Positions 120-24,513 of a DNA stretch of 64,000 nucleotides are shown here, piece after piece. The notes below the pieces were generated by a model. It was not told the DNA's origin and did no database searches. It worked only from the letters and a program-made list of their open reading frames with translations. Source of the stretch: a virus. Lineage: Duplodnaviria; Caudoviricetes. How positions within the stretch are numbered: the first letter of the stretch is position 1; every line of letters begins with the position of its first letter. Position numbers and translations under genes: made by a program. The stretch lies in the IMG/VR virus record IMGVR_UViG_3300050491_000011. The stretch is one strand, 5' to 3'.

Positions 120-959
120 TCAGTACTTAGGTCTTGCACCCAAGGACAGCTTAAGGATTTTACGCTTAAGCTCCTGATCAGCAAGCATGCCGACTTTCTT
201 CCAATCGACGTTGAGGTAATCCATGTACATCTGGTCAGCATCAGCGTAACTGTCGACAATCTCCCGGATACGTCCGAGACTTGCGCCAGCACGAATCTGA
301 CCTTCATCCAGATCGATGATCAGGTTGTTGTAGATGTACGCCTTGACGGCACGGAAGACGAGTTCCGCAAACTCCGAGTAGTACATCGGGTCAAGGTTGT
401 TGAAGTTCGCCTCGTGGGACACTCTGACACGTACTGCGCCGTCACCGACCAATTGGTTGATGTCGTTTACCAGAATCGTGTTAATACCTACGAGTTGAAC
501 GTATGCTGTACCCATTACGGTACTGCCGCTAACGGCCCGCATGATGTCACGACCAACCATGAGCATATCGCCAGCACGACGATCGAAACCTGAGTTAGTA
601 CTGCTACTCAGGCCTTGAGTCAAACCGTAGATAAGTTCATGAACAGTTGTGATGTTCCGACCACCCAATGCTTCACGGGGGAATCGGTACACTACGTTGT
701 AAGCATCGATGAAATCAACTTCCGCAAAACACAACGGAAGGAACATTTCAGTACCAGAGTTCAGGTTGACATCGATTGCAACACGAGCCTCAATAACAAG
801 CTCGCGGATACGCTGATCAATTGACAGCCCATTGACGTTATCGAAATAACGCTCTTGGCGAGTTGGGTCGTAACGCTTTGGCATGAATGCTTGCTTCAAG
901 ATATCCGGTGGAATACCGTTCTTGACACGCATGATTGCCACTGTAACCGGATCTGACAT
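120..959 (-). CDS. Conserved Chimalliviridae protein next to phuZ, probably virion structural
   Basis: Long ORF (track starts at 974; ATG at 959 has a GGAGG SD); C-terminal G-x-I-R-x-G-x-x-LGxIREIVDSYADA motif recalled from phiKZ-like virion proteins. Confidence 0.55.
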   Translation of the reverse strand: MSDPVTVAIMRVKNGIPPDILKQAFMPKRYDPTRQERYFDNVNGLSIDQRIRELVIEARVAIDVNLNSGTEMFLPLCFAEVDFIDAYNVVYRFPREALGGRNITTVHELIYGLTQGLSSSTNSGFDRRAGDMLMVGRDIMRAVSGSTVMGTAYVQLVGINTILVNDINQLVGDGAVRVRVSHEANFNNLDPMYYSEFAELVFRAVKAYIYNNLIIDLDEGQIRAGASLGRIREIVDSYADADQMYMDYLNVDWKKVGMLADQELKRKILKLSLGARPKY

Positions 960-1042
960 AACGAATCCCTCCAATAGGACTCAAGTGATTTCGCTTGAAG
1001 CCTCTTACCATTGTTGCACCAACCATCCATTAGGAGCTGTAC

Positions 1043-2410: not shown

Positions 2411-2517
2411 ATCACGGTATTCATTTGTAACTGAAACGGCTCCTATGCATCCTGTAGAGCCTTGTAGATGTATTTATCTACAAAACGACCTAATCATGTA
2501 GGCTATAGGGGACACGT

Positions 2518-2910
2518 ATGTTCGAGAATTTAGAGTTACCTGACAGGGTGCTAGATGAAAGACACTTCACAGTTGTCGACATCACCGATCAGGTCGATCT
2601 GCTTAAGAGACACGGTCCATTCCATGAACCAGTAATGGAAGCATGGATGGCGCGGCACTACGCTAAGAATCATGGCGTAGCTTGTGTTAGTGCTAGTTTG
2701 TTCGATAGACCAGCCGAGCACAGCATGTTTGAAAGAATGCAAATGTCGTTAACTGCGACAGAGCTAGGGCTTCGTCCTGTTGACTTCCTTCCAGAGCCAG
2801 AAGATAACTGGCTGGATGAATGCGGCGTCTGGTTCTACGTTCGTGGAAACTATTTAGCAATGGGGAATAGCCGTGCTATTGAAAAATGTTGGCGACGACT
2901 GCGTAATTGA
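2518..2910 (+). CDS. Hypothetical protein, member of the small-gene array (FTVVDITD motif)
   Basis: ORF with GGGGA SD; first gene of a tightly overlapping run. Confidence 0.75.
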   Translation: MFENLELPDRVLDERHFTVVDITDQVDLLKRHGPFHEPVMEAWMARHYAKNHGVACVSASLFDRPAEHSMFERMQMSLTATELGLRPVDFLPEPEDNWLDECGVWFYVRGNYLAMGNSRAIEKCWRRLRN

Positions 2911-3325
2911 TTTCTCAGAGATCAGTGACAATTTCTTCGGTGAAGCTACAAAGTTTACAAAAGAGCCAACATCCAGAGATAGACGAACTGTAGAACGTGT
3001 AGTTGGCGAGATGTTCGATGACTACATGACGAAGAGCATGACTTGGACTAAATCGTTCCATGACTTCAATGAGGGGTACTTCATCAATCGGTTGCCTAAG
3101 TGCTGCCGCGATCATCCGAACATCCGTACGATCATTATCGATGTTTACGATGAGATCTCCGATGTGATGGCTGAGGTGATGTCATTGCCTACATGGTACG
3201 ACGTATCAATGCGTGTATCAGGAACCGCCATCCGTATGGAGGTCGGTGAAGACCAGCGTATAGTTCAGTGGACAGAAGAGCACGGTCATGAGTATTCGAC
3301 TAACTACAACGGTAAAGGATGGTGA
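2873..3325 (+). CDS. Hypothetical protein, array member (CVIDFSE motif)
   Basis: GTG start with GGGGA SD; overlaps the previous gene by 38 nt. Confidence 0.7.
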   Translation: MLLKNVGDDCVIDFSEISDNFFGEATKFTKEPTSRDRRTVERVVGEMFDDYMTKSMTWTKSFHDFNEGYFINRLPKCCRDHPNIRTIIIDVYDEISDVMAEVMSLPTWYDVSMRVSGTAIRMEVGEDQRIVQWTEEHGHEYSTNYNGKGW

Positions 3326-3779
3326 TACTAACGTCCACGCTGTGGACGAGTGGTACTCACGGTTCAAATACACCATGGAGAACAATGGTACAGAGCTCCG
3401 TTGGCTTGACAGGGATGTAAGGAAGTTGATGGTAGACACCGCTCAACTGGTTCTTGATCCTTACTCATCCTCTCTCCAACAGCTCGTTACCAGAAACACC
3501 CGCAATCGGAGGCAGTACCTTGACCTCTTAGATCAGCTGGTGGAGTTCGACAATGAAATTCGGGAGGTTATCAGGGCGTGCTGTGGCAACGGCGGTACAG
3601 TTGCTGACGTCTATATCCCCCACGACAAACTTATACTCGTCTTCCAATTGGAAGAAGTTCGGAGGCCCAATGAAACTGGATTTGAAACTTATATCGAATC
3701 TTGTCGAGGAAGCGGTGAATACATCCACCCAGAACTCGACAAGCACCTCAGGCACTGGAGATCCATCGGCGGCGCCTAG
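3288..3779 (+). CDS. Hypothetical protein, array member (VHAVDEW motif)
   Basis: 163-aa ORF in the co-directional run. Confidence 0.7.
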   Translation: MSIRLTTTVKDGDTNVHAVDEWYSRFKYTMENNGTELRWLDRDVRKLMVDTAQLVLDPYSSSLQQLVTRNTRNRRQYLDLLDQLVEFDNEIREVIRACCGNGGTVADVYIPHDKLILVFQLEEVRRPNETGFETYIESCRGSGEYIHPELDKHLRHWRSIGGA

Positions 3780-4209
3780 CTATTCGTATAAGTACGTTAT
3801 TGTTGATGTCGGTGACTTCAACATGACTGACATATCCGAAAGCACGTTGATCGATCCGGGCGCTCTACTGAAGGCTGTATTGAAGTACGAGTTCTGGGAC
3901 GACGACTTCGACTTCAAACATCTGTCTCAGGACATCCCAGATCCGTCTGAAGGCAACGTATCTCTGGCACTCGACGCTTGGTACGCCGACAACGTAGATC
4001 GCATGCACGACACGTTTGAGTTTCTGCGTGATGTACGGCCGGCTGTTATCAGCGACTGCATCATCGTACACGGTCAATGCCTGATCGAAATCTGTAAGGC
4101 GTTGTCTCCTGAAGCCCAACTTGAATTGGACGATCCAGATCTCCACCTCGAGCCGGCTACGGATCTGGACGAGGATGACGCGGACGTTCAGGACGAAGGT
4201 GATGAATGA
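3670..4209 (+). CDS. Acidic hypothetical protein, array member (YVIVDVGD motif)
   Basis: Track start is 3553; ATG at 3670 has a GGAGG SD (GTG 3715 is an alternative); acidic tail. Confidence 0.65.
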   Translation: MKLDLKLISNLVEEAVNTSTQNSTSTSGTGDPSAAPSYSYKYVIVDVGDFNMTDISESTLIDPGALLKAVLKYEFWDDDFDFKHLSQDIPDPSEGNVSLALDAWYADNVDRMHDTFEFLRDVRPAVISDCIIVHGQCLIEICKALSPEAQLELDDPDLHLEPATDLDEDDADVQDEGDE

Positions 4210-4613
4210 AACTCGGAAGGGGAACACCGCGTTCTCTGATCGTGGATATCGATAACGAATTCCACGAAGCTCTGGTACGTTTGGGCGATCATGTCCCTTC
4301 GTACGAGCGAAACCAGTTCATCCAGTACACCGCTAGCATTCTGTTGATGTCGTTGTTGATGTGCGATAGGGATGGTGCAGTCGATGCATTCGAACGCATT
4401 ACCTCTCTTGCACACATCGATGACCAGAAGAAGCATGCGACTATCTGGGGTGAGTTCTTAGCGTTAGCCAACTACTTCCACAGCCACTACTACCATCATG
4501 ACGAATTGATAAGGGATCTTGAAGACATGATCCCTAAGAACCCGAAGGAATTCGCGGAGCTTATATTCGAGGTAGAGGTTGCTGAGAAGGGTGGTTATCT
4601 GAAGGTGAGTTGA
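4206..4613 (+). CDS. Hypothetical protein, array member (LIVDIDN motif)
   Basis: ATGA start/stop coupling with the previous gene. Confidence 0.75.
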   Translation: MKLGRGTPRSLIVDIDNEFHEALVRLGDHVPSYERNQFIQYTASILLMSLLMCDRDGAVDAFERITSLAHIDDQKKHATIWGEFLALANYFHSHYYHHDELIRDLEDMIPKNPKEFAELIFEVEVAEKGGYLKVS

Positions 4614-5051
4614 ATGACTACAAACCGTGACTCGATTCGGATCATTGCTGAGATCGACGGACACGGCAGCCAGTGCTTATTCAATATCGCTGATGACTTG
4701 CAGAAGATGCCAGACTTTGAAGGTGAAAGCCTCGATTATCTGGCATCTCTGGTTCTCAGTTCGATTGTTGACTATTGGTGTCTAGCGGAGATGGACGAAC
4801 TGTCCTACATCCTAGGCGCCTGCGATGAGTACGATGATGTTGAAATAGGTCGTCGGGCTAAACGCGCACTAATGGATCTGTCGAAAGCCGATCTTATCGA
4901 TTTCCCGGATTTCTATAACACCAAGCTAACTCTGGTTGAGATAGCGCAAGAGCAGGAGAAGAAAGGTTGGAAGAAGTACAGGTTCACTGAGCCTGAAGTT
5001 AACCCCAACCGGAAGTTCTTCGTTGTCTGGATGGAATACCTCGAAGATTAG
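4614..5051 (+). CDS. Hypothetical protein, array member (RIIAEID)
   Basis: Starts immediately after the previous stop; AAGGTG SD. Confidence 0.75.
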   Translation: MTTNRDSIRIIAEIDGHGSQCLFNIADDLQKMPDFEGESLDYLASLVLSSIVDYWCLAEMDELSYILGACDEYDDVEIGRRAKRALMDLSKADLIDFPDFYNTKLTLVEIAQEQEKKGWKKYRFTEPEVNPNRKFFVVWMEYLED

Positions 5052-5060
5052 GGAGGTCAG

Positions 5061-5378
5061 ATGTTGGAAACAGAACAATTTGTTATCGAGATAAATCCTA
5101 ACCACGGCGTATCTGACTCCGCCGTGGGTTTTATGCTGTCTAACTGGGTATTGGACTCCGCTGCCCGTAAGGAATGGCTGAGTACGGAAGTGCTGGTTAC
5201 CCTCACCCATGACTACAACCTCAACCTTAAAACCATTGAGAAGATGTCTGGTGATGTACTGGATGCCTTGGAGGACTGCGGGTTATATGCGCAACTGATG
5301 ACCGACGATCGCAGGCTTAGCTCAGTAACATGTAGGGTTAAGCGCGATGTGGCATTAATTGATCTGGAGTGGACATGA
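5061..5378 (+). CDS. Hypothetical protein, array member (QFVIEIN)
   Basis: GGAGG SD before the ATG. Confidence 0.75.
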   Translation: MLETEQFVIEINPNHGVSDSAVGFMLSNWVLDSAARKEWLSTEVLVTLTHDYNLNLKTIEKMSGDVLDALEDCGLYAQLMTDDRRLSSVTCRVKRDVALIDLEWT

Positions 5379-5746
5379 AAGCAAATACGTTACCAGCTGT
5401 CGCCAACAAAACGATGATCGCTGTTCACAACGACTCACTCAACAGCTTCATTAATACCGAGGATCTATCAGAACACGTCAAGGTTCTATCAGGGATCGCG
5501 TTTGATTTCGTAGCAGCGATGCCAATCTGTCAATATGTTTATAACTGGCCGCCTGCTGAAATCATCCTCGATCGCTGCACCGGGAAGTCAAAGCTTTCCA
5601 CGTTATACAACGCTTTGTTCGATGAACTGTCTGAGAACGGATACCCAGTGTCTGTCCTTATGACCATGCAGGTTGTCCAACATGTCCCGAAACGATATAC
5701 CTTGCTTTCCGTACCACTCGCGTCGCGCCTCGGGAGCCTCCACTGA
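5375..5746 (+). CDS. Hypothetical protein
   Basis: ATGA coupling at 5375 with GGAG SD (track start 5369). Confidence 0.7.
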   Translation: MKANTLPAVANKTMIAVHNDSLNSFINTEDLSEHVKVLSGIAFDFVAAMPICQYVYNWPPAEIILDRCTGKSKLSTLYNALFDELSENGYPVSVLMTMQVVQHVPKRYTLLSVPLASRLGSLH

Positions 5747-6110
5747 TAAGGAGTTCATCGTTGTAGATATTAGCGACCTTGTTCGTGAGTTCTGCAATGA
5801 TGTCGACAGGCAGGTGGAAAGTCTCTCGTACGACATCGAAGGCATCATCAGACAGTATTCGGCTTACCGCCATGTAGGACGGTATGATGAGATCGTAACA
5901 GGTCTGTCAAACAAGTTCCTAGAGCTAGGTTGCGTAAAAGTTGAAGATGATGCGCCAATAATAGCAAGAGCTGCCCTCACGTTGTATCGTGCTATCACCG
6001 ACCATATTCGAGACTTAGAATACTTGGTCGGAGCAATCCACGATGTGAAGTTGAAGCTGAACAGTATCAACCGGCAGATAAGATGTAACGCAATCATGAT
6101 GGTTATCTAA
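5682..6110 (+). CDS. Hypothetical protein, array member (FIVVDISD motif)
   Basis: ATG 5682 with AGGT SD (track start 5673); overlaps the previous gene. Confidence 0.7.
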   Translation: MSRNDIPCFPYHSRRASGASTDKEFIVVDISDLVREFCNDVDRQVESLSYDIEGIIRQYSAYRHVGRYDEIVTGLSNKFLELGCVKVEDDAPIIARAALTLYRAITDHIRDLEYLVGAIHDVKLKLNSINRQIRCNAIMMVI

Positions 6111-6128
6111 CCAGTACGGAGCTGTTTC

Positions 6129-6494
6129 ATGAAAAACCACTGTATCGTAGGCTACAGTCCGGGGTTCTACGATTACCTGCAATCAGTGGGGTATCGTGAA
6201 GTCCCGGAACAAGTGTCAGCGGATGAACCGGACTCCCCTCTGGCCTCCATCGACACACAGTTCGTAAACTGGGAACGCGTTGAGTTCCTTGACTACCTGA
6301 CCAATTGCATGATCGGTATCGAGTCTATTGATCCGGATTATCGGGCTACCGTTGAAAGTCTCTATGAGGCTATTGATGACGATGATTTGAGACAACTGGT
6401 CGAAGAAGGTTCGATCGAAGATTTGATATTTAATGACCGAGGCTATTATCTGGCTCGGCTGGAGAGTGTAAATGCCCCTCAACGAATCTTTTAA
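6129..6494 (+). CDS. Acidic hypothetical protein
   Basis: GGAG SD; 121-aa ORF. Confidence 0.7.
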   Translation: MKNHCIVGYSPGFYDYLQSVGYREVPEQVSADEPDSPLASIDTQFVNWERVEFLDYLTNCMIGIESIDPDYRATVESLYEAIDDDDLRQLVEEGSIEDLIFNDRGYYLARLESVNAPQRIF

Positions 6495-6867
6495 AGGGAA
6501 GGTGCTCAGTTTCGAGCTGAGCTCTGGTATCCGGTATACGAACTACAAGCTGCTGGCCCTGCTCGATGTGGGGACGGTTGTAGCGGTGGGTTTCCAAGCA
6601 GCAGGGGAACATCACCAGAACTTCCCGTACATGCCAGCAGATACTCCAGATGACTTCACGGCGTATTCGTATGCCAAGTTCGTCGATCCGGAGAACAAGA
6701 TCCTGTACGTTGGCGTCCCGTGGATCAAGGAAGGTTCGATTACCGTCCTCGACAACGTCAACTACAACTGCCTGCTCCTGAACCCAACCGCTGCCGAGAT
6801 GGACACCTTCCGTTCAATCCTCGTGGCCTCTGGGTTCGAAGGACGATTCAAGCTCACCGTAGCCTGA
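6472..6867 (+). CDS. Conserved Chimalliviridae protein upstream of the DNA polymerase
   Basis: PDDFTAYSYAKF...GVPWIKEGSI motif recalled from the core gene preceding polB; synteny. Confidence 0.7.
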   Translation: MPLNESFKGKVLSFELSSGIRYTNYKLLALLDVGTVVAVGFQAAGEHHQNFPYMPADTPDDFTAYSYAKFVDPENKILYVGVPWIKEGSITVLDNVNYNCLLLNPTAAEMDTFRSILVASGFEGRFKLTVA

Positions 6868-6869
6868 TC

Positions 6870-6925
6870 ACGCACATCCGCCAGCCGAAAGGTTGGCGGA
6901 TGTGTAGCGTCTTTTTTTTGTTTTG
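6870..6925 (+). terminator. Rho-independent terminator
   Basis: Long stem CACATCCGCCAGCC-GAAA-GGTTGGCGGATGTG plus T tract. Confidence 0.85.
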
Positions 6926-6979
6926 TTGAAAGATACAAACCGTGCCAACAATACGTAGAGTACCTCAGAGGTTTGATTG

Positions 6980-9109
6980 ATGGCTAACGATAACCCGTTC
7001 CTCTTACCAGTAGAGGAATACAAACGTGACATCGATGTCAAGAAAGGCTATATCCAACAGGTAGCCAAGTATCTTTCACTTCAGCTTAAACTCCCTTACG
7101 AGAACACGCTGAAGTACGTCCTTAAGAAAGTAGCTAAGGGCGGCATGTTTGCATTCAAAGATCCTGCAATGCAGCAGTTGATCAAGAAGGCTCGCGGTCA
7201 CCGGGTAGAAGATGAAACCACCTTCCTCGGTTATATCGAAGAGATTCGTGAGTCCGGCCGTATCGTTTCCCCGTCGCTGGTGGTTTACGAACGCCCAGAA
7301 GTAGAACGTTCCGTTACAGCTGAATGGCTGGACGATAACATCGCGGCTCGTAAGAAGTCGAAGAAGGCGATGTTTGAGTTGAAGCAGATCGGTGAACTGA
7401 TGAAGTCTGCTCTTGCGGACTATGATCAGAACGCCCGTAAGATCCGTATCAACTCAGTTTCCGGTATGCGCGGCTTTGAAGGTAACCCAATCTTCTTGGC
7501 AACCGGTCACTCCAGTCTGACATCTATGTGTCGGGCAGCAGCGGGGTACGGTAACGCCACTGTTGAAAGGTTCATGGCGGGGTCGAAGCATTACCATACG
7601 CCAGAGATAGCCAAAGCCAACCTGACAGCCATTACGACTATTGAGCAACTAAGTCGTGTCCAGTTGGTGATCGATGAGTACAACCTCGTCTATCCAAACG
7701 TGGATGACGTGGTAGCAATGGTTAAGCGTTCTGCCGAATTGTACTGGGACATTCCTCACGAGATGGAATTGATCCGCGGTATGGCAGAAGGGATGACTCC
7801 ACTGGAACGTGCCACCGTCTGCTACTCGGGCGACATGTACCACTTGGCTAAGTTCAACCCAGAAGTTGTTCGTAACCTGATGGGTGAGATGATCGCCATT
7901 AATATCGATGACATGGAAGACGTTGATACTGACGCCATCCTCATGACTGTCGATACCACGGCCATCGCTTACATCAACGCCCTGTGTGCAAACATCCTGA
8001 AAGGTAGTACGCACAAGCTGGTTAAAGAGAACAACCCGGCAGGGTGGCAGACCATCGGTCGTACAGCACAACGCTTTAAAGAGGCGTCTGCGAAGTACGC
8101 AACCCTGATCACTAACCTATTTGCGCCTAAGCATCTTCCGCCGACTGTAGCCGCTCTCAAGGGCATTCAGCGCCGTGTATGTCTGGCAGCAGATACCGAC
8201 TCCTCCATCTTCAGTACTGAATACTGGGTTGAGTGGTACACCGGCAGCATGAAGCGTGGGGAAGTAGAGGACCGTATCTGGTATCTCGCCACCTACATGT
8301 CGTGCCAGTGCATTGCGCACAGTCTGGCAATGTTGTCGGCTAACGTTGGTGTGGAACGTTCGCAACTCTTCCGTCTGGCAATGAAGAACGAGTACGCCTT
8401 CCCGGTGTTTGCTCTGACCAACCTTGCTAAGCATTACTTCTCCTTCATGTCCATGCGGGAAGGTAACGTTTACGAAGAGAATGAACTGGAGATCAAAGGT
8501 GTGGAGCTGCGTGGTTCTACTGCGCCTAAGCACATCTTGAAGGCGGCTGAGGAGATGATGGAGAACATCGCTACTCACGTCAACGAAGGTCGGAAGATGA
8601 ATGCGGGTAAACTCCTGCGGTTCGTTGCTGATCACGAGATCGAAACCATCCAGTCCATTAAGCGTGGGGAATACAAATACCTACGTTCTGCTCAGATCAA
8701 GCCGGACAGTAACAAGATGCTTCACCACGAACTGTGGCAAGAAGTGTTTGCTCCTAAGTACGGTGAATCTGTAGCGCCACCGTATCCATGCGTAAAGATC
8801 ACTTCTGAGTTGTCTAACAAGACTAAGACTCAGGAATGGTTGGCGGGTATGGAAGATCAGGAGCTGGCCAAGCGTATGGCAGCGTGGATGATCAAGTGGA
8901 ATCGTAAAGAGATCACTACCTTCTATCTGCCGACCATGGTTATCAAGAATGGTGGTCTTCCAATCGAACTACAGGAAGCTGCAAACGTCCGGAAGTTGGC
9001 CTACCAGATCAACTCAGGCTTCTACCGGATCTTGGAGTCTACTGGCCTTCATTTGGTGGATCGTAACAACTACCGTCTCATCTACGACTTCTTGGGACTG
9101 ACAGCATGA
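6980..9109 (+). CDS. Split family-B DNA polymerase, part carrying motifs B and C (phiKZ gp50-like)
   Basis: Motif B RKIRINSVSG and motif C AADTDSSIF; no exonuclease motifs; ATG 6980 with GAGGT SD. Confidence 0.9.
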   Translation: MANDNPFLLPVEEYKRDIDVKKGYIQQVAKYLSLQLKLPYENTLKYVLKKVAKGGMFAFKDPAMQQLIKKARGHRVEDETTFLGYIEEIRESGRIVSPSLVVYERPEVERSVTAEWLDDNIAARKKSKKAMFELKQIGELMKSALADYDQNARKIRINSVSGMRGFEGNPIFLATGHSSLTSMCRAAAGYGNATVERFMAGSKHYHTPEIAKANLTAITTIEQLSRVQLVIDEYNLVYPNVDDVVAMVKRSAELYWDIPHEMELIRGMAEGMTPLERATVCYSGDMYHLAKFNPEVVRNLMGEMIAINIDDMEDVDTDAILMTVDTTAIAYINALCANILKGSTHKLVKENNPAGWQTIGRTAQRFKEASAKYATLITNLFAPKHLPPTVAALKGIQRRVCLAADTDSSIFSTEYWVEWYTGSMKRGEVEDRIWYLATYMSCQCIAHSLAMLSANVGVERSQLFRLAMKNEYAFPVFALTNLAKHYFSFMSMREGNVYEENELEIKGVELRGSTAPKHILKAAEEMMENIATHVNEGRKMNAGKLLRFVADHEIETIQSIKRGEYKYLRSAQIKPDSNKMLHHELWQEVFAPKYGESVAPPYPCVKITSELSNKTKTQEWLAGMEDQELAKRMAAWMIKWNRKEITTFYLPTMVIKNGGLPIELQEAANVRKLAYQINSGFYRILESTGLHLVDRNNYRLIYDFLGLTA

Positions 9110-21250: not shown

Positions 21251-21293
21251 TTATTAGAGCAAGCACCATATAGTGACCAAGCGGAGTGTATTG

Positions 21294-22883
21294 ATGGAAT
21301 TCAGCATCACTGGATTTACCAAACGAAGTTTCTCAGCCGTCGCAGTTTCTCATCCCGGTGAAAACGATATCATCATCAATGCCGCAGGTTACGCTAACGC
21401 GAAACCCGGTGCAGTAAAGAATGATGAAGAGTTCGGAATGCGCGTCGAGCTGTTCAGCGAGATCAACGATCTCATCAGCCGTTATAGCAAGGGGGAACAA
21501 CAAAAGCTGTACGATTGCTACGCCCGCCTTGACACGGTGCTGGACTCGTACGGTACAGATGTGAAAGCCAGTGAGTTCATGGAGCTGTTGCAAGATATCG
21601 TTAAAGGTATCTTCGACATCGTGAAGTTCGAAGACCTGCGTGATTACCTGACCAGTAATAAGAACATCAAGTTCCCCGCAGAACTGGCTGACACTTACGT
21701 TACAGCAGATAAGATCACTCCGATCTACATGGAGCGTACTTATCTGAAACGGGAATACATCGATCTGGCAGCAGTGGCATTGGGCCTGCGGTGCATGATT
21801 CCTGTTTGGGGTGCTTTCCTTCCAATCGCTATAAAGGAAGAAGGGCCGAAGAAGAAGGAGTACGTTGCGTACAAGCTTCTGGATACCTGCCTGCTTAAGG
21901 AGTGTCCTGCATTCGATCGTCTGGAAACTTACGTTCGGGCAAACACTACCGAGATGGAACACGAGATGGCTATCATCTTCGAGTTCCTGTCATCTGAGGA
22001 GATCCCTGTCTTCTTGATGGCATTGGCATTGATCCGTAAGGTTTCGATTGCACCGTTGTCCGCTGAGACGGATAAGGATCACTTGATGAAGGTGGTCTTC
22101 AACTACGTCTGCGGTAACAACAACAGACTTCCAGCGGCATTCGGCGGTAACATCCGTTCGAAGATCGATGTGGAAGCAGCAACAGACGACAATAGTTCGG
22201 TCTGGTGCTACTACAAAATGAAGGAGCAGATCAGTACTGGCGACCTCTGCATCTTCCAGCTGTACATCACCGATTATCTTGAAGCGGCTCGCGCCATTGA
22301 TCAAGAGATCACCGACGAACAAACCGAGATGTGCGTAGCACGCGCGCAGAAGCTGGCACGGTTTGATCCGAATGACGCACAGATCGCTCTCTGCATCTGG
22401 GTAATGTCTACAGTGGTAGCAGGTTGTGCGATCGAGATGTTCGACCGTAACACTCTGTTCACGGCCATGGGTATCTCCCAGACCGTACTGTGGAAGTGGG
22501 GTTTCCATCAATTGGCAATCCTGCAAACAGCAGCTCCCGTCCAGATGGCTGACGACGAGATGATGACCCCGGTTCCTAGAACCAAGATCAGCGACGAGAA
22601 CATGAAACAACTGGAATACATCTATCCTTACACAATGCCGGAGAGCAAGAAGGATAGTGGTCAATCACCAAACGTTGGGGTACGTGGGGTAGAAGACGCG
22701 GCAAATGTATTCTTCAAGAACGAATGGGAACCTCAGTGCCCGCGCCAATTGGCAGCGAAGTTCGAAAGGTCAGACGTTACCCGGCGTCTCCAGGTTTCCA
22801 GTGACTTCCGCGATGAGCTGGCTGAGTTGTTTATCAAGCTGGACGGTTACGTACGTCACATCCCTATCCCGGTAATGGACTGA
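21294..22883 (+). CDS. Non-virion RNAP sigma-like promoter-specificity subunit (phiKZ gp68-like)
   Basis: About 530 aa, helical; lies between chmC and picA; ATG 21294 with GGAG SD (track start 21273). Confidence 0.72.
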   Translation: MEFSITGFTKRSFSAVAVSHPGENDIIINAAGYANAKPGAVKNDEEFGMRVELFSEINDLISRYSKGEQQKLYDCYARLDTVLDSYGTDVKASEFMELLQDIVKGIFDIVKFEDLRDYLTSNKNIKFPAELADTYVTADKITPIYMERTYLKREYIDLAAVALGLRCMIPVWGAFLPIAIKEEGPKKKEYVAYKLLDTCLLKECPAFDRLETYVRANTTEMEHEMAIIFEFLSSEEIPVFLMALALIRKVSIAPLSAETDKDHLMKVVFNYVCGNNNRLPAAFGGNIRSKIDVEAATDDNSSVWCYYKMKEQISTGDLCIFQLYITDYLEAARAIDQEITDEQTEMCVARAQKLARFDPNDAQIALCIWVMSTVVAGCAIEMFDRNTLFTAMGISQTVLWKWGFHQLAILQTAAPVQMADDEMMTPVPRTKISDENMKQLEYIYPYTMPESKKDSGQSPNVGVRGVEDAANVFFKNEWEPQCPRQLAAKFERSDVTRRLQVSSDFRDELAELFIKLDGYVRHIPIPVMD

Positions 22884-22923: not shown

Positions 22924-24513
22924 ATGGAACTTGTTAAACTTATCTTCGTGGAAACTGAAGGCAGCGACACTCCAGTCATTCGCCCTTACGAAACCTCGTT
23001 GAAGAAAGACGACCTCGATCTGTTTGCAAAGGCAACCGATGATGGTGCGAACCTCAGCACTATCCGGCTGGCCAAGGTTGTAGCTCCACTCCTCGGTCCA
23101 TCGAACCGCCGGCAGCACAAGTCCCACATCGCCAACGGCTGGTCCGAATCCCGGATCATGTTCGGCATGGTTGTTAAGGTGATGAACCGTGACAACGCCA
23201 GCACCTACGAGTATATCGTGGGCTATACCGACAACAGCGAACACGCCCGTCGTGGCGACACCGCGAAGTTCGATGCTGGCATGAAAATGTACTTCAATAA
23301 CATTACGAGGGTTCACATGCAGGAATCCCGTCACCGTAATGATAACATCTGGGTGCCGAAGATTCAGGCGCATGACCAGATCCTCCTGCGTTCCAGCCTG
23401 ACCGGTTCTGATCGTGGCACTACCCGTGGCGGCGATCGTCCAGTTACTCTGCGTCCTACCGACTTGTTCAAGCGCGGTGGTGCAGATGCGGCATTCGGGT
23501 CGTTCATGCGTGATAACGATTCGAACGTAAACAATACCGTTGGTTCGTTCAGCTCGGCTATCCGTGCATCGAACGTTGTCAACAACAGCCAGACCGCATA
23601 CGCGGCCCGTAACCTGAATGCGTGGATGCAGGCGAGTAATTCGCCTAACGATGCGTACGTTGGTGACGGTAATGATGAAGACACCATCCAGGCAGCTTCT
23701 GATCGTTTGGCAGAGAACTCTCTGGAACTCGATCCGTATCTGGAGCGTATCAAGCGTGATACCAATATTCTCCGTGAAGGTTGCATTACTTTCGGCGAAC
23801 TGATGGACATGAACGAAGACTTCGATGAAGATCGTCAGTTGATGTTCGTTCCGTTGGACAAGCGTAAGCGCGGTGGTTTCATCAACAACTCCGCATGGGG
23901 TGAAGATACCAACGAGGCAATCGCTGCGACCATCATCGCAAACTCCCTGCCCGGCATTCTGATCAACTCGATGTATTCGTCGGTATCTGGTCTGGTGCTG
24001 AACAGCCGTGCGCGCTTCGGCGAGTACAAAGTGGTCTGCTCTGAGCCAACTCCGTTTGCTCCAGGCATGTCGGTTAAGGCGAACTGGCCATACTTCGAAA
24101 GTCAGATCGAACACGTTCTGATGGAAGAAGTTGGTTGCGGTGGTGCGTTTGAGTTTGAAGCGTACATCGACGCGAACATCGACCAGTACATCAAGATCCG
24201 TATCCGGATGGATGGTGGTGAAGAAGCATCGTTCAACTTCCCAGCTTACGCGTCCAGTCTTCTGGCGCCTACGCAGGATAAAGACTTCAAGTCGCTGGAC
24301 AAAATGTCGAAAGGCGTTATCGATCTGGCTTCCGGTCTGTCGAACATGCGGATGTCTCGCGCAGGCATCGGGTCTCAAGAAGATGGTCTCAACACTGGCA
24401 GCGAAAGCCGCATCAAGTTGGGCGCCAGCAAAGAGCCTCGTTCTCGTGACAATGATTACAGAGCCGCTCCAGCAGCAGCCTCTGGCGATAAGAAAGGTGG
24501 TAAGGGCTGGTAA
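22924..24513 (+). CDS. picA: PicA/Imp1 phage-nucleus protein importer (phiKZ gp69-like)
   Basis: 529 aa; N-terminal ETEG...IRPY motif; synteny after the gp68-like gene. Confidence 0.72.
   Translation: MELVKLIFVETEGSDTPVIRPYETSLKKDDLDLFAKATDDGANLSTIRLAKVVAPLLGPSNRRQHKSHIANGWSESRIMFGMVVKVMNRDNASTYEYIVGYTDNSEHARRGDTAKFDAGMKMYFNNITRVHMQESRHRNDNIWVPKIQAHDQILLRSSLTGSDRGTTRGGDRPVTLRPTDLFKRGGADAAFGSFMRDNDSNVNNTVGSFSSAIRASNVVNNSQTAYAARNLNAWMQASNSPNDAYVGDGNDEDTIQAASDRLAENSLELDPYLERIKRDTNILREGCITFGELMDMNEDFDEDRQLMFVPLDKRKRGGFINNSAWGEDTNEAIAATIIANSLPGILINSMYSSVSGLVLNSRARFGEYKVVCSEPTPFAPGMSVKANWPYFESQIEHVLMEEVGCGGAFEFEAYIDANIDQYIKIRIRMDGGEEASFNFPAYASSLLAPTQDKDFKSLDKMSKGVIDLASGLSNMRMSRAGIGSQEDGLNTGSESRIKLGASKEPRSRDNDYRAAPAAASGDKKGGKGW

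Follow-up and report, generated by a model that had tools for sequence, protein, structure and literature searches.

Gene content and layout of the PhuZ-PolB interval

The analysed stretch of DNA, referred to here as the window, comprises 64,000 nucleotides (nt) of the IMG/VR virus record IMGVR_UViG_3300050491_000011 and belongs to an uncultivated viral contig of 188 kb. It encodes PhuZ (1043-2050), with at most 35% identity to any PhuZ among the phage records searched, a family-B DNA polymerase (PolB, 6977-9109), a homologue of phiKZ gp68 (21273-22883) and a homologue of PicA/Imp1 (22924-24513; BLASTP E-value 1e-24 against gp69). Based on this gene set, the phage is a divergent member of the nucleus-forming Chimalliviridae. 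The present analysis concerns the array of small genes located between PhuZ and PolB, the relatedness of the encoded proteins to one another and their relation to the phiKZ import factors Imp2 and Imp4.

Ten consecutive open reading frames (ORFs) of 105-179 amino acids (aa) are found on the plus strand at 2518-6494, followed by an eleventh at 6472-6867. Genes are named by their first position. Gene 2518 (2518-2910) encodes a protein of 130 aa with an isoelectric point (pI) of 5.5 and the motif FTVVDITD; its family is found in 15 loci. It is followed by gene 2873 (2873-3325; 150 aa, GTG start codon), gene 3288 (3288-3779; 163 aa), which is the most variable member, and gene 3670 (3670-4209; 179 aa, pI 4.05), whose product carries a Ser/Thr-rich leader and an acidic tail. 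Gene 4206 (4206-4613) encodes 135 aa and is abutted at its stop codon by the start codon of gene 4614 (4614-5051; 145 aa, pI 4.4). The remaining genes are 5061 (5061-5378; 105 aa), 5369 (5369-5746; 125 aa), 5682 (5682-6110; 142 aa from the ATG at 5682) and 6129 (6129-6494; 121 aa, pI 4.05), the latter two occupying the positions of phiKZ gp47 (Imp2) and gp48 (Imp4), respectively. From gene 2518 to gene 6472, successive genes overlap by 38, 38, 110 and 4 nt, join directly (0 nt), are separated by 9 nt, overlap by 10 and 65 nt, are separated by 18 nt and overlap by 23 nt. All array products are acidic (pI 4.05-6.0), and the array is ordinary in gene structure. The initial annotation had described about ten overlapping small genes at this locus; all ten ORFs are present with mostly overlapping or abutting junctions, and the N-terminal strings quoted for them (FTVVDITD in 2518, CVIDFSE in 2873 and others) are found at their places.

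The block is bounded by two terminator-like hairpins on the plus strand. The first (2360-2391; 12-bp stem followed by a T-run) is located just after a Cys/His-rich gene of 74 aa and forms the 5' boundary, the second (6872-6905; 15-bp stem) precedes PolB and forms the 3' boundary. About 20 nt upstream of the first start codon, an intergenic element (2470-2500, plus strand; gTAtttA..TACa ... CTAATCATGTA) is conserved in an alignment of 12 relatives and is a candidate promoter of the array; it has no obvious further copy within the window. The element differs from the ACATTAC motif of the same genome, of which no copy is found before the array. Because of the flanking hairpins, the conserved upstream element and the overlapping or abutting genes, the block looks like a single operon-like transcription unit. 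Its last gene (6472-6867, plus strand, 131 aa) encodes the orthologue of phiKZ gp49 (profile-profile (HH) probability 100%; found in 74 loci), which has been described as an SH3-domain interactor of the phage polymerase and which stands outside the small-protein family. The 110-nt overlap of genes 3288 and 3670 (3670-3779) encodes a strongly conserved C-terminus in the frame of 3288 and, in the other frame, the Ser/Thr-rich leader of the 3670 protein. Residues 1-20 of the 5682 protein, which are predicted to be disordered, are encoded within the 65-nt overlap with gene 5369.

Conservation of the array was analysed in 79 related loci that were retrieved from IMG/VR by a PolB search. The per-gene profiles recover exactly one member per locus, and no member is common to two families. 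The gene order is invariant in about 16 loci with a PolB identity of at least 64%. One relative has 74% identity in PolB but no more than 18-49% in the small proteins. Compared with the closest relative (98% PolB identity), the ratio of nonsynonymous to synonymous substitution rates (dN/dS) is 0.03-0.17 for nine array genes and 0.44 for gene 3288, the product of which shares 61% aa identity with its counterpart (L004:6306-6794). Given the one-to-one orthologues in fixed order and the low dN/dS, the array genes are real, under purifying selection and fast-evolving relative to the flanking core genes. In the same comparison, dS ranges from 0.22 to 1.54 along the array (2518: 1.54; 4206: 0.93; PolB: 0.27), and this very uneven distribution suggests that related phages have exchanged short segments in a mosaic fashion.

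Such divergence could also be that of host-takeover or anti-defence effectors, which would bind host proteins or mimic nucleic acid and evolve in an arms race without any link to import; common descent of the array is compatible with this explanation. The acidity of all members, a rate of change far above that of the flanking core genes, and the combination of low identity, elevated dN/dS and uneven dS seen around gene 3288 against a nearly identical PolB all fit effectors. However, loci shaped by an arms race tend to gain and lose genes, whereas copy number and order are fixed in the array. Purifying selection acts on its genes, no dN/dS value exceeding 1, and none of the ten proteins has a meaningful match in Pfam or PHROGs (PADLOC was not searched). 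In addition, the one protein of this slot that combines the structural build described below with a known function, Imp2, works in import. An effector role is therefore considered improbable.

A megablast search of the region against phage records gave no match. Beyond the clade of the window, only the Cys/His-rich gene, gene 2873 (gp43 family) and gene 6472 (gp49) can be traced by sequence, and the remaining genes are clade-specific. Profiles link three of the array families to positional counterparts in other clades. The 2518 family matches family c7 at the same relative position in the DT01 clade (HH probability 70%, 96 columns), the 5682 family matches the DT01-clade orthologue c4 (HH probability 91%, with the likeness plain in the alignment), and the 3288 family is weakly linked (HH score 23.1, 135 columns) to c20, which comes next to the gp43 homologue on its downstream side in other clades. 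The order PhuZ, 10-15 small genes, gp49 orthologue and PolB is found in every chimallivirus examined, i.e. the window, pPa_SNUABM_DT01, RTH11, phiKZ, PhiPA3, 201phi2-1, Psa21, Noxifer and Eowyn. According to the conserved order and layout together with the cross-clade profile links, the array consists of old, position-conserved orthologous lineages and is not a recent local expansion.

Similarity among the array proteins

Profile-profile comparison was performed for 12 families (66 pairs), with 132 comparisons of forward against reversed profiles as a null (maximum score 18.4). The profile family of gene 5682 is labelled 5673 in this comparison. HH scores above the null maximum (18.8-29.2) were obtained for 11 of the 66 pairs, and all 11 fall among the 28 pairs formed by the eight motif-bearing families 2518, 2873, 3288, 3670, 4206, 4614, 5061 and 5673. 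The best pair of the array is 3670 with 5673 (score 29.2, probability 31%, 74 columns), in which the motif is in register, as it is between 2518 and 5673 (23.2). Further links join 3288 with 2873 (25.9) and 4614 with 4206 (24.7, 125 columns); the latter alignment extends over the full length and matches both the N-terminal strand and the C-terminal hairpin. The sole, weak link of the 5061 family is to the 3670 family (20.8, C-terminal region). Six pairs were checked residue by residue, and their alignments start at the N-terminal strand and match the acidic residues that follow it. All pairs involving 2126, 5369, 6129 or 6472 score at most 16.6. For 5369, the best score in the array is 16.0, which lies inside the null range, and for 6129 no link to other array members or to gp48 is detectable by profiles. 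The diverged paralogues proposed in the initial annotation are thus recovered in part: eight families are linked by above-null pairs, and 5369 and 6129 are not among them.

The initial annotation had based this proposal on a similar strand-helix motif at the N-terminus. A loose form of the motif occurs within the first 60 aa of 6 of the 8 crude array ORFs, against 24 of the remaining 216 in the genome (Fisher 8e-5), the pattern having been defined post hoc. In a leave-one-family-out test, the held-out proteins ranked 1, 11, 18, 20, 32, 50, 92 and 104 of 217. By these ranks, the motif sets 5682, 4206, 2518 and 3670 apart, but it is generic in the case of 2873, 3288 and 5061.

AlphaFold2 models were obtained for 5682 and 4206. 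The 5682 model (predicted local distance difference test (pLDDT) 81.8, predicted template modelling (pTM) score 0.73) comprises disordered residues 1-20, a strand (24-29), helices at 31-42, 52-62, 68-81 and 91-111, and a hairpin (117-127 / 132-141). The 4206 model (pLDDT 87.2, pTM 0.83) comprises a strand (11-14), helices at 17-27, 32-52, 55-68, 74-95 and 99-108, and a hairpin (123-125 / 131-134). Both models consist of an N-terminal strand, four to five helices and a C-terminal hairpin in the same order, and the beta-hairpin expected at the C-terminus is seen in both. A PIN or HAD phosphatase domain, suggested by the strand pattern 'hhhD.xD', was rejected: Pfam gives no support for it, and both models show a helical bundle in place of an alpha/beta sandwich. 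For the other eight proteins, a Chou-Fasman estimate is too weak, reaching a three-state accuracy (Q3) of 0.61-0.64 on the two models.

The PDB contains no convincing relative of either model (template modelling (TM) score at most 0.26). Searches of the ESM Atlas reached a TM-score of at most 0.43 by shape and gave no lead by features for the 2518 protein. Among the top 50 BFVD targets, 19 are common to the 5682 and 4206 models. The BFVD neighbours are almost all uncharacterised proteins of 100-180 aa from giant nucleus-forming phages, with several per phage, and include gp43 homologues for both models. Three Noxifer and three Eowyn targets correspond by length to genes inside the PhuZ-PolB intervals of these phages.

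Taken together, this evidence bears on the possibility that the array is a set of unrelated lineage-specific ORFans in a permissive slot. Their shared look would then be convergent or compositional, and no common function would follow from it, since a hydrophobic strand, an acidic residue, amphipathic helices and a terminal hairpin are the usual habit of short soluble acidic proteins. Against this, the 11 real pairs score higher than any of the 132 reversed controls, and register is kept in the alignments that were checked. Both models select the same 19 BFVD targets, almost all from such phages, at a TM-score in the PDB that does not exceed 0.26. Gene number and order are fixed across the clade despite the low identity of the proteins. 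The ORFan explanation is therefore considered rather unlikely.

The preferred explanation is that most of the array, the Imp2 position included, is probably one old family whose members have kept their place and fold but not their sequence. From the profile similarity, which is weak, and from the two concordant models with their shared structural neighbours, we infer that the eight members 2518, 2873, 3288, 3670, 4206, 4614, 5061 and 5682 may be very old paralogues of common descent, a view to which we give an even chance. Their shared build would consist of a short, often disordered leader, located in the overlap with the preceding gene for 3670 and 5682, one strand with an acidic residue at its end, four to five bundled helices and a C-terminal hairpin for which pairing with the first strand is predicted. 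Small proteins of the corresponding slot in other chimalliviruses, among them the gp43 family and Imp2/gp47, would have this build as well. The single fold 'expanded and diversified' of the initial annotation is accordingly supported for part of the array, by the eight linked families and the two models, but not as a local expansion, in view of the age of the orthologous lineages; 5369 and 6129 show no link.

Several points weigh against common descent. BLASTP and phmmer detect nothing among the array proteins, and the best HH probability among the window's own families is only that of the 3670-5673 pair. The N-terminal motif alone is a weak discriminator, as three of the eight families are no better than background. 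Models are available for only two of the ten proteins, their helix count differs (four long helices in 5682, five plus a short one in 4206), and their concordance is one of element order and common neighbours. The BFVD matches have weak E-values (1e-3 to 0.5) and TM-scores of 0.3-0.5, and for several targets, protein length was the sole basis for assigning a gene. Since small helical bundles arise readily, a shared architecture may not mean common descent.

In a more distant clade (L063, L068, L071, L073 and L076), three consecutive genes upstream of gp49 (families c28, c29 and c21) relate to the 5682 family, c21 via bridging sequences and c28 and c29 with HH probabilities of 60% and 38%, respectively, over 89 columns each. 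At the level of profiles, this is a clearer tandem paralogy than any within the window, and it indicates that tandem paralogy does occur in the PhuZ-PolB slot.

The Imp2 position and a possible role in nuclear import

In phiKZ, orf47 (imp2) and orf48 (imp4) lie between PhuZ (gp39) and PolB (gp50), as the initial annotation had correctly stated for import co-factors in this interval. Neither orf47 nor orf48 took disruptive transposon insertions, and both have been called possible cargo-specific adaptors. Imp4 (gp48) is needed for the import of TopA. Imp2 is needed only for the import of the RecA-like protein Nlp1 (gp152), is itself imported via a dedicated Imp1 interface and has been described only from Pseudomonas phiKZ-like phages (bioRxiv 10.1101/2024.03.27.586873).

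Gene 5682, its DT01-clade orthologue c4 and gp47 are all located two genes upstream of the gp49 orthologue. The respective gene orders are g5673-g6129-gp49-PolB in the window clade, c4-c11-gp49 in the DT01 clade and gp47-gp48-gp49-PolB in phiKZ, and gp47 has the same position in PhiPA3, PS119XW and Noxifer. The structural neighbours of the 5682 model in BFVD point to the same protein. The first-ranked target is a PS119XW protein that was confirmed as a gp47 orthologue, and the second is a 167-aa Noxifer protein whose length matches that of the Noxifer gp47 orthologue (gp47 profile E-value 2e-10). Ranks 9 and 11 match by length Psa21_42 and the SL2 gp47 copy, and rank 19 is PhiPA3 044, which is annotated as similar to gp47. 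The 5682 protein also resembles Imp2 (phiKZ gp47; PhiPA3 gp44) in size, and both have a leader and an N-terminal hydrophobic strand followed by a helix. In Imp2, the escape mutation K45N is located just after this strand (bioRxiv 10.1101/2024.03.27.586873).

Other comparisons speak against the equivalence of the two proteins. The matches to Imp2 orthologues in BFVD have E-values of 1.4e-3 to 2.4e-2, but TM-scores of only 0.29-0.32 and root-mean-square deviations of about 9-15 Å. Unlike in 5682, the acidic residue after the strand is unconserved in the Imp2 family, and the two families lack profile similarity: the 5673 family profile, a merged profile of 33 sequences and an enriched profile of 95 sequences score 14.3, 14.8 and <14.4, respectively, against the 6-sequence gp47 family, with null maxima of 18.4-18.6. 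The enriched profile drew on the 52 representative clusters of the 5682 family among 1.84 billion proteins; a homologue search with the 5682 protein found only 6 close matches. No window family scores above the null against the profiles of gp41, gp45, gp46, gp47 or gp48, and a related-locus search with gp47 found no relatives among viral contigs. Similarly, 6129 is located directly upstream of the gp49 orthologue, as is Imp4, and is of comparable length (121 vs. 127 aa), but no similarity of any kind was found between them; gp48 has no relatives in the loci examined, and its profile is therefore a single sequence. Overall, the equivalence of the 5682 protein and Imp2 is a tentative assignment, to which we give somewhat less than an even chance.

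Two further computations are neutral. A search for RecA (PF00154) in the genome record, which is 75% complete, gave no match and settles nothing with respect to a cargo. A complex prediction of PicA (residues 1-480) with the 5682 protein returned a score of 0.00, i.e. no answer, and speaks neither for nor against binding.

By analogy with Imp2 only, the array proteins would be cytoplasmic products that themselves enter the phage nucleus via PicA/Imp1, and some of them might escort or license particular cargo proteins. On this analogy, the import-adaptor role put forward for the array is plausible. It seems far less likely that the whole PhuZ-PolB block in all Chimalliviridae is one ancient Imp2-like family, each member using its own PicA/Imp1 surface for a different cargo. 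If true, these viruses would possess their own counterpart of an import-adaptor repertoire, so far concealed because its members keep position and fold and not sequence.

PicA/Imp1 is the conserved core of import. Imp2 and Imp4 were traced by sequence, which is why reports of them are confined to Pseudomonas phiKZ-like phages. Should the family be defined by position and fold and not by sequence, every chimallivirus would carry candidate equivalents in a known slot. A short testable gene list for cargo-specific import would then be available for any such phage, including the cultivable pPa_SNUABM_DT01, Noxifer and Eowyn. If the likeness is only architectural, the block would still be a family-wide operon with conserved gene order and an unusually fast sequence turnover.

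Related families and neighbouring genes

The product of gene 2873 belongs to the phiKZ gp43 family (PhiPA3 gp39, 201phi2-1 gp75), which is present in 45 loci. It matches the N-terminal 160 aa of gp43 over its whole length (residues 7-146 to 3-160; HH probability 99.9%, E-value 1.4e-36). In contrast to the 150 aa of 2873, phiKZ gp43 comprises 357 aa, of which the C-terminal 200 aa are lineage-specific and unrepresented in 3288. The idea of a split gene, with 2873 and 3288 together corresponding to gp43, was rejected: the C-terminal half of gp43 scores 12.8 against 3288, and the conserved core is the N-terminal domain of about 150 aa alone. The gp47 family (L010:18934-19470) and the N-terminal domain of gp43 (L010:16342-17415) are linked by an HH score of 23.0 over 96 columns (null maximum 18.4), which hints that, as far as profiles can tell, Imp2 and gp43 may themselves be distant relatives.

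Diverged multi-copy families are known from phiKZ-like phages, namely the inner-body gp93-like proteins (PF12699) and the baseplate proteins gp131-135 (PMC12676376). The array resembles them in being multi-copy, diverged and typical of this phage family. However, they are virion proteins recognisable by sequence, whereas the family proposed here is non-structural and visible only via profiles, models and gene order. In the literature searched, no description of the proposed small-protein family was found.

The Cys/His-rich gene upstream of the array (2126-2350) encodes 74 aa with conserved pairs C..C ... C..C, followed by W-H. It has no Pfam or PHROG family, and from its residue pattern the product is probably a zinc ribbon. 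The gene comes after PhuZ in 45 related loci.

A homologue of phiKZ gp42 (120-974, minus strand; BLASTP E-value 1e-39) is located upstream of PhuZ in the window. In phiKZ, PhiPA3, 201phi2-1 and Noxifer, the corresponding gene is found inside the PhuZ-PolB interval, also on the minus strand. The block is thus rearranged with respect to these phages.

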